This document shows, piece by piece, positions 8,641-28,122 of a DNA stretch of 64,000 nucleotides. The notes beneath the pieces were generated by a model. It worked only from the letters and a program-made list of their open reading frames with translations. It was not told the DNA's origin and ran no database searches. Source of the stretch: Eledone cirrhosa (taxonomy: Eukaryota); the NCBI GenBank assembly GCA_964016885.1, contig OZ024740.1:354578001-354642000 (forward strand), given 5' to 3'. Position numbers and translations under genes: made by a program. Each line of letters opens with the position of its first letter. The stretch's first letter is position 1.

Positions 8641-8899
8641 ACCTTCTGTTGCTATATTTCCCTACGTATCATTTTCTGTATTTATTCTGGTGTCACTAAC
8701 AATCAATTTATTTATATTTATCTTAGGTCACTATTGTGTGTTTGTGTATGGTTGTTGTTGTTGTTGTTATTCCATTCATTTTTTTTCTATTCATCTTCAG
8801 TTTTCTTAGTTCTATTTCAGTTGCTTGTCTGATTTATCTACCTGTTGAGTCATTTCTATGTTTAGATATTATTTTAATTTCTATGTTGTCTATATTACC

Positions 8900-9180
8900 A
8901 TCATGTCTTCGTCTGAAATAACAGCTATAATAATAATAGTCATAACAATAACAACAATGAGAGCAGAAGAGATAGAAATAATAATAATAGAAATAGTAGT
9001 AACAACAATGATAACAATAGAGAGAACAGCAACAACAACTATAAAAACAGCAATAGATAAAACAACAATACATGTAACAACCACAATAATAGAAATAACA
9101 GTAACAACAATGATAACAGTAGGGAAAACAACAACTATAATAACAACAATGATAATAATAGTACACACAACTATGATGGT
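8900..9180. repeat. Low-complexity (AAC/AAT/AGA) trinucleotide tract
   Basis: Direct reading; abuts the PLE remnant and may be part of it. Confidence 0.8.
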
Positions 9181-9199: not shown

Positions 9200-10840
9200 T
9201 AGAGAACCTGTTCTTCAACCCAGCTGACAAAACATAGAAGATGAACAAAATTTACCAAAATTTACTACATTACCCTTTAATAAAAGAGTCTGTACACCAC
9301 AACAAATAGATGACCAAACAGAGGCACAGTTTACCTTAGCTAGAAATAAACTTAGACAGGTAGTAGAACAATATACTAGGAGACAAAACAGACCAGAGAT
9401 TCAACAACTTGGAAGAAAACCTGGAAGAAACCTACTTACCCTCATGCAGTGCACAAGGGAAGGTGAGGTAGTGTGTCTACCTACAGACAAATCTGGTAGG
9501 ATGTCAATAGACAGCATGCCGAACTACATCAAGGCTATGCAATCCCACATCATCAATATGAGGGAAACAACACCACAAACACATAAGGGGAGAGAAAGGA
9601 TCCTCAATGCACACTTGATGATAGGGACTGAAATCCTAAAACCAAGTAGACGCACAGCCAATACTTTCCAAGCCTCTAACAAGAATATACCACCCTTGTA
9701 TGGGATCCACAAAGACCATAAAACAACTAACAACCCTATGGCAGGACCACCAACAAGAGCTGTATGCGGAGCCAATATTGCTAGCAACTACAGGATCTCC
9801 TACTTCCTCTCTATGATTGTACGCCCCATAATTAAGATGTCCCAGATGTGTGTGACAGCACAGAGGACCTCCTCAGCAGAAACAATGACGGCAACAACAA
9901 TGAAGACTTCACAAACTGCATAATAGGCAGTATGATGTAGTGTCCCATTGACATTGATTTTGCTGTGGAAAAATGTGTGGAAATATTCGGTGAAAGTGAG
10001 GTAGAATTTTGTGACATTAACACAAATGAACTGGGCCTCCTACTTAGACTTACATGTGACAGTGAATACTTAAATTATGACCTTAGCAGTTTCTACCCCA
10101 GTAGACTAATAAGTGGTAGACCCCCCCCCCCACGCTCACCATAACTTTAATGGCTATAAAGACTCCCATAGATAGATGGAATGGGTGGACCAAAGCCATA
10201 CGAACATCCATGAACAATGATCAGGTGAGAAAATGATTTGCACATGTGGTAGGGGCTAGTATTAAAACTACCCTAAAGGGCCACATGTTTAAATTTAATC
10301 AGAAAATTTATACTCAGGATGAGGGAGCGGCCATTGGCGTCACCATAGCTGCTGATGCTGCCAACCTATTTATGATAAGGTGAGAAAGGAGACTCAGAGA
10401 ACTCCTAGAAGAGAACTGCATAGCCCTCATCATGTTCTTTCGTTACATATATGATACCAATATAGTAATAAAAACACCCCCACAAGAGAGTTCCAATAAA
10501 CCTGAATTAGAAACTAACACAATAGAGAGTATCCAGCAGATAGCTAATTCCATACACCAGAGCATAACAGTAACTATCGACTACCCTTCCAAGCAGCCTA
10601 ACAATAGACTACCAGTATTTGACATTGAACTCTGGTTAAACACTATAAATGAGAAAACCCAAATTCTCCACTCACATTATGCTAAACCCATGGTCTCCAA
10701 ATACCTTGTACACAAAAACTCAGCAATGTCCAATAGTGCTAAGTTTAATATTTTGATCGCAGACTTAGTAAGATTGACGAAGAATGTGTGTCACACATGC
10801 GATCCAACTGAACTGGAAAGATATGTACAAAATATATAGG
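9200..10840 (+). mobile_element. Penelope-like element RT pseudogene (frameshifted, truncated after the thumb)
   Basis: PLE motifs PTDKSG, PPLYGIHKDHK, GPPTRAVCG, CDSTEDLL, FKFNQKIYTQDEGAAIG, degenerate RYIYDT, LPVFDI, HYAKP..HKNSAM. Confidence 0.85.
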
Positions 10841-11856: not shown

Positions 11857-11858
<2 letters not shown>

Positions 11859-12927
11859 CGAAGGAAATGTGGTAAGGAACCAGGTGGACCATAACGCACC
11901 AAAGTACTCAATACTTGAGGTAGTAGAGTGGGTAGTACCTTAGTACCCCCCCTCCCCTAGTCTTTGATAGATTTGGCGGACTCCGCCCTTTATAGCAGTT
12001 GGCTTAGACCCTTTTTCCGACCGCTCCCACTATTCTCTGTGCCCTCTATATTTCTTAGTGGCACTTATGCCTTATTTTTTCGTTTCAGTACTTCTTGCTT
12101 CGCTTTTCTTCTGGGCGGGGTGGATTCTGAATTTATTTCTCCGTATTCTACCTTTATTTCGTACGAACTTTCATGTAGCTTGTTTTAGATCCTTTAGAGT
12201 TAGCATTAGTATATATTTTTCTCGGGACTCAGAATTATTATCTCGTACAAGTTCACTTTGCTGCACTGGGTCGTTGCTGGCCCGGGATGGAAACCTTTAT
12301 TGTTTATTTCGTGGTAGTCTCTTTAGTATTTTGGCCCCTTTTGTTGACCCGTCACCGTATCATTTACGTACTTATACCTCTTAAAAGGGTCCTTGCCTTA
12401 TCCGTCCCACCTAGTTCTCTTACTTATTTCCTTATTTATTTATTTATTTATTTATTTACTTCTTCCTTTCTTTCTTTACTTTATTCTCGCCTAACAATAG
12501 CCTGACACCTAGGTCGTAGAATTTAATTTACTTTACTTTTTTCTTTACACTTATTTGCTTTTCTTCACTCTCAGTATTTTTTCTTTCCTATTTCTACCCC
12601 CCATTGTTCTACCTACCGTTCCGACTTCCTCCCCCTCCCCCTCCCCTGTATCTTCTTTGACCTCATGCCCAGCTGTAGCTGGCACTACCAACGCTTGATT
12701 GGGTCTACTCCACCCCCTCCCCTCTTTCTCCTACTGGCAGGTTTAGCCACCATCTCCCCTACTAATTTGCAACCACAGAATTACTACTGATTTTTGACAA
12801 TCACTTTGACCATATATGGAATTACCCCTTGAGAAGATCGGCTATTTAAATACCAGGATAAATTTTCATTTAGTCCAGAATTAGCCGTCGAAACGGCTTG
12901 AGCTCAGCTGTCGGGGTCTTACTGGTT

Positions 12928-12930
<3 letters not shown>
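11857..12930 (+). mobile_element. About 1.07-kb non-autonomous PLE-pLTR/retrozyme-like element in (TA)n
   Basis: (TA)n on both sides; 5' end is an inverted tail shared with 25491-25565; hammerhead near the 3' end; no convincing ORF. Confidence 0.7.
12824..12917 (+). ncRNA. Type I hammerhead ribozyme, U3-A8 core variant
   Basis: Stem I ACCCC/GGGGT; core TTGAGAA; stem II GA(T)CGGCTA/TAGCCGTC; GAAA; stem III CGGC/GCTG with palindromic loop TGAGCTCA; GTC triplet ending at 12912. Confidence 0.75.
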
Positions 12931-12972
<42 letters not shown>

Positions 12973-13002
12973 ATTATGTAATAAACAACATAAGGCAATT
13001 AT

Positions 13003-13060
13003 TCCATTTACCAGTGGTTTCTTAAAAGCAAAAGGTTTTGCTTTCAATCCTCAGAATGAA
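13003..13060 (-). ncRNA. Type I hammerhead ribozyme (inverted copy)
   Basis: Reverse complement of 13088-13145. Confidence 0.88.
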
Positions 13061-13087
13061 AAATCCTGGTTTTGTAAACCAGGATTT

Positions 13088-13145
13088 TTCATTCTGAGGA
13101 TTGAAAGCAAAACCTTTTGCTTTTAAGAAACCACTGGTAAATGGA
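13088..13145 (+). ncRNA. Type I hammerhead ribozyme
   Basis: TTCATT-CTGAGGA-[TTGAAAGCAAA acct TTTGCTTTTAA]-GAAA-CCACTGG-TA^AATGGA. Confidence 0.88.
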
Positions 13146-13252
13146 ATAATTGCCTTATGTTGTTTATTACATAATAATAATAATTAAGCTCTGTTGCATA
13201 CATAGAGCACTCTTTTTTCCTGGACTTTTCCGATGGAATTACTTCATTTATA

Positions 13253-13294
<42 letters not shown>

Positions 13295-13356
13295 CATACA
13301 CATACAAATATATACATATACATATATATATACATATACATATACATATACATATA

Positions 13357-13388
<32 letters not shown>

Positions 13389-13391
13389 CAT

Positions 13392-14880
13392 ATGACCCTG
13401 ATAAGAAGGTAGCTTGGAAGTGTCACTATGAAAGGCTACTAAATAAGGAGAATAAATGGGAGAAAGACAGTCTCCCCCACATCGATCCAATAGAGGGACA
13501 AGCAGTGCAATTTGAAGGTAGTATAATAAGTAAGGCAATCAAAGATATGAAGACGGGTAAGGCGGCTGGGCCTTCGGAAATAGTTGCTGAAATGCTGAAA
13601 GCATCTGGAACGGTGGGACACACTATGGTCACCCGGATAGTAAACCAAGTCATACAGAATGGGGTCGTATCGAAGGACTGGCGTAGCAGCATCATCATTA
13701 ACTGCTACAAGGGTAAAGGAGATGCCCTAGATAGGGGAAAATATAGAGGCATTAAATTAATTGACCAGGTCATAAAGGTCACAGAAAGAGTTATAGCGCA
13801 ACTAATCAGAGAGCAAATTGATCTGGATGAAATGCAGTTCGGGTTTGTGTCAGGTAAAAGTACCACAGACGCTCTTTTCATTGTACGACAACTACAGGAG
13901 AAGTACCTAGCTAAAAATAAATCCCTATACTTAGCCTTTGTTGACTTGGAGAAAGCCTTTGACAGAGTCCCACACCCCATTATCTGGTAGGTTCTCAGAA
14001 AACTAGGTGTTGATGAATGGCTTGTGAGAGCTATACAAGCCATGTATAAAGAAACAGTCAGCAAGGTTAGAATTAACAACGAATATAGTGAAGAGTTTAG
14101 CGTAAAAGTTGGTGTTCATCAGTGCTCCATCCTTAGCCTCCTCCTATTTATTATTGCCCTTCAGGCTATATCAGAGGAGTTCAAGACCATGGGAACTCCT
14201 ATACGCTGATGATCTAATGCTTATAGCTGAATCAATGGCTGAACTAGAGAAGAAATTCCAAACATGGAAGCACGGCCTAGAATCAAAAGGCCTTAAAATT
14301 AACCTGGCTAAGACTAAAGTTCTAGTTTGTAGGAAGGAAAATAGGGCGCCGGTCCCATCTGGGAAATGGCCATGCTCAGTGTGTAGGAAAGGAGAAGGCA
14401 GAAACTCCTTTTTATGTCCCAAATGCAAAGTATGGGTGCATAAAAGATGTAGTGGGATCACAGGTAAGCTAACTAAGAACATAGATTTTATATGTGGCCG
14501 GTGCTCAGGTGCAATATGTAGCAGCAAGTGCCCATAGAATACTAGCCCATTCCATTGCACAGATGGTTCTATAGAAATAGTGGACACCTTCCGTTACCTG
14601 GGTGACATAATCAGCAGTGGTGGAGGGTGCTCTGAAAGTACAGTAGCTAGAGTCAGAACGGGATGGAAAAAGTTCAAAGAGCTTATACCACTATTGGCCG
14701 CTAAAGGGTTCTCTCTAAAAATGAAAGGCAGGCTGTATGATGCCTGCATACGAACAGCAATGTTACATGGCAGTAAGACTTGGGCATTGTGTGTAGAGGA
14801 TCTATGCAGACTGGAGAGGAACGAAGCTTGCATGCTCCGTTGGATGTGTAATAGTAATATACGTGAATGGCAAAGCATAA
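13392..14880 (+). mobile_element. RTE LINE (PHD-in-RT family), 5'-truncated pseudogene
   Basis: [41 protein letters not shown] motifs, with stops and frameshifts. Confidence 0.95.
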
Positions 14881-15296
14881 CTTTACATTGAAAGGGGTGG
14901 TGTGGATGGGGTGGGGTGGTGGGACGGAGGTGTATTTTTGTTAGAGGTGTTTACTGACTGTAGATTTCGTTTTGCACTTAGGGAAGGTGGGTCTTCTGTA
15001 TTACTGCGTAGCGCCAATGATATCGGTCCAGTGACATTGTCTTGGAAAGGTGTAAGTGTGTGAGGTCGGAATTTATCAAGTCATCCCAGGTTTTTCTGGG
15101 TCTGCCTACTCCATGGCTACCGTCTATTTTGATCGCCCTGCACTTTTTTATACAGCTGTCGTCTTTCATGCGCATCACGTAACCATACCAACGTAGTCTT
15201 CTCTTGAGTAAACAACATCTGATCCCTCTTATTCCTAATTTCTCCCTTAGTTCATTCATGCTTTGCCATTCACATATATTACTATTACACATCCAA
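14881..15296 (-). mobile_element. Inverted 3' part of the same RTE family
   Basis: ORF 14978-15292 RLRWYGYVMRM..GRPRKTWDD; junction microhomology CATAA. Confidence 0.9.
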
Positions 15297-23492: not shown

Positions 23493-25120
23493 CTAATTAA
23501 GTTTATAATATTTGAAGGTTTTTCTAATTCTATGATTGCATGATATAATTAACTTCTGTAGCTTATTTAATAGGGTATCATTAGATTTCATGATTTCAAA
23601 TAGTTCTTGGCAGCATAACCTACACTCATATCTGCTATTTTGATAAGGGGTGGCCCTTTTGAGCACGCTCCAGGTCAGGTTGTAATCAATATCCCTCTTT
23701 CTATAATTATTAATTGTTTCAGCCAAGGAGGTTGTATTAACTAATGCAGCATTTTTAAAACTATGTTTGTGGGTATTAAATCTTACTTTAAATTGGTTAG
23801 ACGTAGCTCCTATATAGGATTGAGTGGAGTCCTTAGTACTAATTACATATTTATAGACTATGTTATTAATAAGACAATTTCCCTTTAATGGGCAATTTCT
23901 TTTGATTCTACAGTTACAGCCATTCGTATATATTGTATCAGGAGAGTTAATTGTGTTATCTATAGTGGTATTAGTGTTACTATTTTCATTAATGTATGGT
24001 TTAGAATGGGTTGTAATTAGATTAGTATGGTTAGACAGATTGTTGGTAGGTGATAGTTTAGGGGATGTGGAGCTAGTAGAGTTATGTTAGTCAAAAATTG
24101 ATGTGGAGTTATAGGTGAAGAAGAAGGTGGTTTGTTTTGGTTTATTTTAGTATTATTATGGTTGGTTTGATGTGTTGGTGGTATATTAATGGGTTTTTTA
24201 CACTTATATGTGTTGTATATTCTTATATTAGCACTTATATTCTGTTGTATATTCTTATAGCACTTATATTCTGTTGTATATTCTTAGTAGTGGAGTAGGA
24301 AAATTTGACAGTAGATCTGTTTAAAATTTGATGGTATTTATGGTTTGGTGGAAAGTTTTTCTCTAGTATAGCAAAGAATTTTTTAGGGATATGGTCTTTA
24401 ATCTGTAGATTAAATGGAGCATTATACCAAGTAACTCGTCTATTACGGTTTCAACATTGTTTCTTATATTTATATGATGTATCGGGAGGTTTACTGAGAG
24501 AGTTACTATTAGTGATTCTATTATATATAGGTTTAGTTAGATTAATTGATTTAGGTGTTTTCGTCTGATTACTAGGAATTTTGTTAGTTATGTTGTTGAC
24601 ATATGTTAGATTATTAGCGGGACTGGTTTTTTTAAAGTCATTATCTTTTATGTGAGAAAAGGTAGAGAAATTAAGTTCTGGGTTGGTGTTTTTTAGGTGT
24701 AGTATGAGTGTCATTTAGGTGTGGGTTTTTCATTTGGTGTTTGTTGGTAATATTAGGTTGTATGTTTGAAATATTATTGGTGCAAGGTATATAGACTAAT
24801 TTGTTCTTGTGGCCGCTTCTAGCTAAAGCTTCATTATAAAAGGGCGCGTTTTTATCGAATACATCCTGGTTAGATGAAAGGTTAGAAATTCTGAGTAAGA
24901 TATTATATGCTAGGTTTTTAAGGATAGATCTCGGGTGATTGGATTGTGAGTGTATGTAATGTAAGTTTTGGTTAGGTTTATGGTAAGGTTGGTAGATACC
25001 CGTAGATAAGTCCATAGTTATATCTAGGAAATTGACTATCTTACTGGTGTTTTCAAATGTAATAGTGAGATTATAATAGTCTTTCAGGAAAGTTCTAAGT
25101 TTTTATTTCTTTCAATTTCT
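23493..25120 (-). mobile_element. Penelope-like element resembling the Naiad clade (RT thumb, linker, C-terminal GIY-YIG), decayed; probable AT-rich 3' region down to about 22590
   Basis: NFLDITMDLSTGIYQPYHKPN..YIHSQSNHP; VTWYNAPF; CNC..CPLKGNCL..IVY..YIGATSNQFKVRFNTH..SF; LTWSVL..Y..CRLC..LLN..CNH. Confidence 0.88.
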
Positions 25121-25490
25121 GATAGGCTAAGATTGGACACTACCGTTTATTTTGGTAGATTTATCTACATATATATATATATTACACACACACATATACG
25201 CATACACACCCATACACATATACATATACGCACATATATACACACACACATACACATATATATATATATATATACACACATACATATATATATATATATA
25301 TACATATATGTGCACACACATACCTACACATATATACACACATATATATATATATACATATAAACATACACATACCTACACATATATACACACACACATA
25401 CATATACACATACATACACATACCATATATATACACATACCATATATATATATATACACTACATATATGCACACATATATATATATATAA

Positions 25491-25692
25491 CAAAGGAATT
25501 GTGGTAAGGAACCAGTTGGACCATAACGTGCCAGAGTACTCAATACTTAGGGTAGTAGAGTGGGAAATAGGAAAAAGTATGACCCCGACGGCAGAGCGCA
25601 AGCCGTTTCGACGGCTATTTCTGGACTAAATAGCCGTCCATAAATAGCTGTCGAAACGGCTTGAGCTCTGCCGTCGGGGTCATACTTCTTCC

Positions 25693-25695
<3 letters not shown>
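25491..25695 (-). mobile_element. Short fold-back copy of the 11857-12930 family: hammerhead 3' half on both arms plus tail
   Basis: Arms 25567-25620 and 25642-25695 contain TAGCYGTC-GAAA-CGGC..GCCG-TC-GGGGTC; tail 25491-25565 matches 11860-11932. Confidence 0.85.
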
Positions 25696-27426: not shown

Positions 27427-27751
27427 TTAGTGATTGTATGGGTTAGTATTCAGTTGTGGTTTTAAGTTTTTAAGTTTTTACCGGTTGCGCATTTCTAAAT
27501 GCTTTTCAAAAATAATTTTGAGATAGAGTGTCCGTGTTGTTTGCTCTGATCTGTATATATATATATATCCTATACATACATATATATATATATCCTATAC
27601 ATACATATACATATATTTCAAATGCATACATATATACATATATATATATACACACCACATATACATACACATATATTTTTCTACATACATAAATATATAT
27701 ATACATATATATATATATATTTTTTTTTTATTTTTTTTATTTTATAGAAGG

Positions 27752-27802
27752 AGCTTCTACAGGACTAGTACTGTTTCATTCAGATGAAATCTTCAGGAAG
27801 CT
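27752..27802 (-). ncRNA. Type I hammerhead ribozyme (inverted copy)
   Basis: Reverse complement of 27931-27981. Confidence 0.88.
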
Positions 27803-27930
27803 GGGTGTCATATTAAGTTCTGGTATTTATACATTTAGGTAGTGGTAAGGGAGGGGGTCCCCCCCCCCCCAGCCACCCCCTCCCTTACCACTACCTAAAT
27901 GTATAAATACCAGAACTTAATATGACACCC

Positions 27931-27981
27931 AGCTTCCTGAAGATTTCATCTGAATGAAACAGTACTAGTCCTGTAGAAGCT
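27931..27981 (+). ncRNA. Type I hammerhead ribozyme
   Basis: AGCTTC-CTGAAGA-[tTTCatctGAAt]-GAAA-CAG-tactagtc-CTG-TA^GAAGCT. Confidence 0.88.
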
Positions 27982-28067
27982 CCTTCTATAAAATAAAAAA
28001 ATTTTACTCTGCCATGTATTGAGTACCTTACTTACTGTGGTTATCCCCGACTCAACCCGGGACCTAC

Positions 28068-28122
<55 letters not shown>

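Follow-up and report, generated by a model that had tools for sequence, protein, structure and literature searches.

How does a genome come to hold a short, perfect palindrome that carries a hammerhead ribozyme motif on each strand? The question arose from a first-pass annotation of a 64,000-nucleotide stretch of the Eledone cirrhosa genome (contig OZ024740.1; this whole stretch is referred to here as the window), which described two 106-bp arms, a 3-nt spacer, hammerheads on both strands, and a one-sided tail that runs into (TA)n. That architecture held on reanalysis, with one adjustment: the arms are 107 bp long, the difference being one base at the TA boundary (Table 1). The left arm is a 100% match to the reverse complement of the right arm, (TA)n flanks the palindrome-plus-tail on both sides, and the tail is predicted to fold into two stem-loops. 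The locus contains a single direct unit and no tandem repeat. We consider it highly probable (about 0.93) that a Penelope-like retrotransposon (PLE) of the Hydra clade inserted here not long ago, was heavily truncated at its 5' side, and left an inverted copy of the same end alongside. Only the end of the terminal repeat was copied, that is, the hammerhead and the tail.

Table 1. Features of the palindromic insertion and its flanks (window positions)
Feature	Position	Strand	Basis
(TA)n target tract, common to the left neighbour element	12931..12966	.	sequence
Left arm: inverted, 5'-truncated, tail-less pLTR copy	12966..13072	-	match to right arm
Mirror type I hammerhead, predicted to be masked in hairpin	13002..13061	-	descriptor, folding
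Junction spacer TGT, particular to the window copy	13073..13075	.	centre varies among the 30 closest copies
Right arm: direct 5'-truncated copy of the terminal repeat (pLTR), reaching the tail-less end point within (AAT)n	13076..13182	+	
Type I hammerhead; stem III ACCA-C-UGGU, cleavage predicted after 13139 (GUA)	13087..13146	+	
One-sided tail, about 66-68 nt, between two preferred element ends	13183..13250	+	
(TA)n/(TACA)n tract	13250..13394	.	sequence

Copies elsewhere in the 3.0-Gb genome trace the palindrome to a longer parent. A 284-bp query returned 1,732 candidates, and the 40 that were scored were 93-100% identical to it. A 23-nt pLTR word had 4,482 exact matches and the 51-nt hammerhead (13094-13144) had 1,473 exact copies, with none for the reversed control of either. 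Among the 30 closest copies the arms and tail were nearly invariant and the centre varied from copy to copy, which indicates that a new palindrome arises with every insertion and that the palindrome is not itself the mobile unit. Searching with the tail alone recovered copies that extend upstream, in some of which the tail continues into coding sequence, and a near full-length element was present in two of the three regions examined (L063 and L061). The element in L063 (contig C3), about 4.3 kb long, runs from one pLTR through a 710-aa ORF (L063:1980-4112) and a 1.9-kb 3' region to another pLTR; the L061 ORF is divided between two frames. The first-pass annotation had suggested looking for longer parents with a PLE ORF, and L063 is such an element. 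In the parent the tail runs on into the 5' region and then the ORF. The right arm with its tail is identical to the pLTRs of both elements over 175/175 bp, and the right arm itself is identical to L063:1690-1796. The palindrome is very probably not a stand-alone ribozyme element.

The Hydra clade has been described as having a reverse transcriptase (RT) with a C-terminal GIY-YIG domain, RWK, DKT, and CxCx5C motifs, no CCHH, a (TA)n target, and a canonical hammerhead (Craig et al. 2021, PMC8557442). By motif, the single parent ORF encodes an RT (YRDDG) followed by a C-terminal GIY-YIG (VVYEA..YVG). The L063 protein has all of the motifs listed for the clade (RWK, DKT, YRDDG, CxCx5C, VVYEA..YVG, and CxxC-E..N-CxH, with no CCHH) and, by eye, closely follows Hydra-1_Obim in the supplement alignments. 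It had 1,320 relatives at E<=1e-10 among 7,998 scored. Pfam searches returned no matches for this protein or for the Hydra protein of the second family discussed below, and a search of solved structures gave nothing significant for the parent protein. These motifs and the by-eye comparison with Hydra-1_Obim place the parent, on sequence, in the Hydra clade. Other traits of the clade are present as well, namely the canonical pLTR hammerhead, insertion in (TA)n, an optional tail, and an inverted 5'-truncated copy. Length is the exception, as Hydra-clade elements are generally <3 kb, which is a tendency and not a defining motif (PMC8557442), and the parent reaches about 4.3 kb owing to its long 3' region.

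A shorter derivative of the family was seen in the third of these regions, on contig C7 (L062:3832-4960), where an inverted tailed arm is followed by tandem 423-bp units (pLTR plus ORF start) and a tail-less end, as in a retrozyme-like mini-element. Its inverted arm and first unit share a variant that is absent from the later units. Tandem mini-units were found at L062 and L140 and none at the window locus.

The first-pass annotation had compared the palindrome with another in the same window, the 27.7-kb element (27732-28070; 127-bp arms and a 16-nt spacer), and had judged that the two differ in sequence and that a shared mechanism was more likely than recent common ancestry. There is no significant DNA similarity between them (best E 0.35). 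The tail of the 27.7-kb element gave no matches when used as a DNA query, and a 20-nt word pattern of its family had 3,138 genomic matches. One region (L185) carries a 784-codon Hydra-type frame between inverted pLTR copies, and its product is 33% identical to the L063 protein (P0001). These comparisons assign the 27.7-kb element to a second Hydra family. Because both parents belong to the Hydra clade and their proteins are 33% identical, the inference of a shared mechanism was right.

Other elements lie nearby. A third, unrelated element (11858-12929) uses the same left (TA)n tract as the palindrome. Its hammerhead (12822-12917) has a U3-A8 core variant, a long stem II, and a palindromic loop 3; its right end is tail-less, its own tail is inverted at the left end (11858-11937), and another short palindromic copy is present at about 25490-25693. 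A further Hydra-type ORF survives in broken form at 23532-25183 (-), with 30-41% identity to P0001, and fragments at 10246-10833 (+) and 8783-8914 (-) are 70-73% identical to another PLE-type RT frame (L063:6555-7982). LINE-type RT fragments are abundant (13403-14885 and about 15 other places; Pfam RVT_1 on an L062 relative) and are the source of the window's longest inverted repeats.

The right-arm hammerhead has the type I core and all three stems, with a 7-bp stem I, CUGAGGA, an 11- to 12-bp stem II, GAAA, CCACUGG, and UA. The first pair of stem II (10.1-11.1) is U-A instead of the usual G-C. A relaxed descriptor found three motifs in the window (two in the palindrome and one in the left neighbour) and none in the reversed or the complemented window; it missed the motif of the 27.7-kb element, in which stem II begins with a mismatch. 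An Rfam search found no hammerhead family at the locus, only sub-threshold microRNA-hairpin matches. The core nucleotides are kept among genomic copies: in 83 terminal copies, minority letters made up 9/913 in the core, 27/83 at N7, and 75/332 in loop 2, and an intact core together with H17 was kept in 73 of the 83. The 3' strand of stem I is uninformative in this sample because the copies were chosen by a word over that strand. Enrichment of 5' ends at the cut site was considered and dropped as a claim, with only two suggestive cases (L056 and L134).

Folding predictions bear on whether these motifs could cut. The nearly palindromic stem III had been taken as a hint of dimer-dependent cleavage, and the computations favour the dimer as well. 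In the monomer the 3-bp stem III forms with a predicted probability of about 12%, and two 60-mers cofold as a double hammerhead at -31.2 kcal/mol, compared with -22.2 kcal/mol for two separate molecules (2 x -11.1). Within 276 nt of parental context, stem I was absent from the predicted fold, which fits reports of weak dimer cleavage or protein-dependent cleavage. The hammerhead was inherited from the parent, in which cleavage would proceed through a dimer or be assisted by the protein. In the palindrome, on either strand, the hammerhead fold was predicted to lie 90 kcal/mol above the 107-bp hairpin, and transcription reaches the antisense arm first whichever strand is read. Because read-through RNA of either strand would form this hairpin, both hammerheads of the window copy are predicted to be inert, buried within it. 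The weight that had been placed on hammerheads on both strands is not borne out: the second hammerhead comes along with the inverted truncated copy as a side product, the junction varies from copy to copy, both motifs are predicted to be masked, and the same arrangement has been published for Penelope-13_HM.

The first 100 of the 4,482 pLTR word matches (contig C1, 0.1-104.6 Mb) were examined over 1.5-4.4 kb upstream and grouped by hand into 68 consecutive insertions. An inverted partner was present in at least 35 of the 68, since farther partners fall outside the examined flanks. Four of the 35 were set aside, one with a deleted end (L145), one with a tail-to-tail rearrangement (L068), and two in which the partner end was unseen (L109 and L138). 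Among the 31 readable inverted insertions, 30 had one tailed and one tail-less end, none had two tails, and one (L125), which joins two different parts of the element, had two tail-less ends. Two of the 30 are a segmental duplicate; counted once, they leave 29/30 (P about 3e-8 at 50:50), with the three longest insertions (5-6 kb) assumed to be single events. Single insertions, those with no inverted partner, end either way. The tail occurs at either end of the palindromes, and the arms range from a few bases to kilobases. The second family gave one tail in 14/14 short pairs from its first 30 loci and in 4/4 long pairs, the latter having been picked. When 22 short palindromes were inspected by eye, 11 were symmetric within about 5 nt, 7 had the longer arm on the tail-less side, and 4 had it on the tailed side. 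A search of the literature on PLE twin priming found no statement of a one-tail rule, within a coverage that leaves out most subscription journals.

Several further observations were made at individual junctions. In most of the 14 short pairs of the second family, the arms meet at a self-complementary word on the 5' border of hammerhead stem I or slightly within it, and junctions cluster there far more tightly than in the first family. Both arms of L009 share a change in the GAAA of the core, which indicates that the arms were copied from one template or homogenised later. Within 34.75-36.10 Mb of C1, two insertions each occur twice in the same flanking sequence (L086/L091 and L089/L094), with about 0.9-1.2 Mb between the copies; the duplication is either segmental or a product of the assembly.

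A likely explanation for the inverted copy is that the two ends of a single (TA)n cut both served the enzyme of the element as primers for reverse transcription. Copying from one break end would start beyond the tail, on its far side, and copying from the other on its near side, most simply with both starts on one RNA held by an enzyme dimer, and both cDNAs would stop early and then be joined in the middle. The one-tail rule, taken together with the two start sites reported for the PAc protein (described below), leads us to infer that each break end is primed at a different site. We rate twin priming with one start site per DNA end at roughly even odds. The two tail-less ends of L125 count against it, as does the report that the in vitro start site of PAc did not differ between strands (PMC11167929). 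The near-symmetric half of the short junctions is also what would be given by fold-back self-priming, in which one cDNA copies itself and asymmetric centres arise from later repair; the asymmetric junctions could be accounted for if the centre of the palindrome lost sequence later on. Self-priming by fold-back has been put forward for PLEs on the basis of palindromes seen where inverted copies join (PMC3846280), and several of the 11 near-symmetric junctions are centred on self-complementary words. The arms share private variants in L009, L062, and L145, but such sharing is also expected if one RNA is copied twice. Simple fold-back of a strand that begins with the tail would never leave the tailed arm the shorter one, yet it is shorter in 7 of the 22 palindromes, and the joining of two different element parts in L125 is likewise at odds with it. 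Fold-back is a serious rival, to which we give less credence than to twin priming.

Readings in which the palindrome is not a by-product of PLE insertion fare much worse. A self-standing, non-autonomous element (a retrozyme, a MITE, or a viroid-like RNA) with a fixed palindrome and ribozymes working in both polarities might be suggested by the hammerheads on both strands, by the many near-identical palindromic copies, and by the tandem 423-bp mini-units that exist in the family at L062. It is very improbable, given that the centre differs in every copy, arm length spans a few bases to kilobases, the tail occurs on either side, both ribozymes are predicted to be masked, and the locus has no tandem repeat. 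Perfect palindromes are a known artefact of long reads, and the locus was read from the assembly; a fold-back chimera was therefore weighed as well. However, the flanks differ, the tail is one-sided, the ends in both families map to two fixed positions, and substitutions separate the arms of older copies; an artefact of assembly or reads is the least probable of these readings.

The parent contains a third hammerhead copy (L063:4512) between the ORF and the pLTR, about 1.2-1.9 kb upstream of the pLTR hammerhead. In 21 sampled internal copies the core had no changes over 231 positions, and position 17 was G in 20 of the 21. The G17 pattern has up to 691 genomic matches, a few of which are terminal copies. 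UG at the cut site of a hammerhead is not known to be cut. The internal hammerhead could conceivably be an enzyme-only half that acts in cis and cuts only the pLTR site, in combination with one enzyme dimer, one RNA, and one start site per DNA end, but we regard this whole scheme as unlikely. The double-hammerhead fold of the internal and pLTR copies is predicted at -22.1 to -23.4 kcal/mol, compared with -19.4 to -21.0 kcal/mol for the separate monomers, and the best cofold lies at -28.0 to -28.4 kcal/mol, so that the heterodimer fold is 4.6-6.3 kcal/mol above it. Because of this gap, and because the conservation of the internal core is not significant, a decayed old pLTR is the more likely and plainer reading. 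A second copy in L186 was considered as a replicate of the G17 form and rejected, as it has a normal GUA site and a microsatellite end and looks like a separate insertion.

The window copy itself is an ordinary retrotransposon stub. Its value lies in the young family that it represents, which has intact ORFs and more than a thousand identical copies of the ribozyme, and in the rule of one tail per inverted insertion, which any model of PLE integration must explain. The origin of tandem and inverted PLE structures has been named as an open question (PMC8557442, PMC11167929). The hairpins, if transcribed, would supply double-stranded RNA against the family.

In L1 twin priming, both target ends prime on the template and produce a head-to-head inversion, and the two pieces do not overlap. 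Here, in contrast, the two arms represent one and the same stretch, with start points offset by about 67 nt. Within the Hydra clade, the inverted truncated copy, the tail, the (TA)n target, the two-strand hammerheads, and the palindromic stem III are all published features. For Penelope-13_HM, an inverted 5'-truncated copy is described and hammerheads are listed for both strands, and a palindromic 4+1 stem III is the rule in the published Hydra hammerheads (PMC8557442); that of Hydra-1_oBim is acca-a-tggt and that found here acca-c-tggt, both with 4 bp and 1 nt. The present family is different from the described Hydra elements, being 4.3 kb with a 1.9-kb microsatellite-rich 3' region where those are mostly <3 kb; its stem II is longer, and a second hammerhead, with G17, lies inside the element. 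Its tail of 66-68 nt exceeds the 30-40 nt described for PLEs.

The hammerheads reported in PMC4209133 have a long helix II, a palindromic helix III, and weak dimer-dependent cleavage and occur in pairs 100-700 bp apart on opposite strands. The long helix II, the palindromic helix III, and the opposite-strand pair recur here, whereas pair 10.1-11.1 is U-A without a bulge and a helix III of 3 bp can form in the monomer, with a predicted probability of about 12%. The non-LTR retrozymes of animals are defined as tandem arrays in which two or more hammerhead units point the same way (bioRxiv 10.64898/2026.07.22.740005). The window copy resembles them in its type I hammerhead, PLE derivation, and lack of a protein, but has a single direct unit.

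The closest mechanistic comparison is with PAc, a PLE of the Poseidon clade from Anolis. The PAc protein cuts and extends both strands in vitro, uses two reverse-transcription start sites that flank the tail, and is predicted to be dimeric; the target is AT-rich, and the hammerhead is protein-assisted and dispensable for insertion in vitro (Frangieh et al. 2024, PMC11167929). PAc belongs to another clade, and its hammerhead and tail lie in the start of the ORF, compared with 120-280 nt upstream of the ATG here. One tail per insertion is a feature of the present families and not of the PAc account as far as it was available (PMC11167929), and the rule connects the pair of start sites seen in vitro with both ends of a single insertion. 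The additions made here to these known systems are the one-tail counts in two families and the parent's internal G17 hammerhead.
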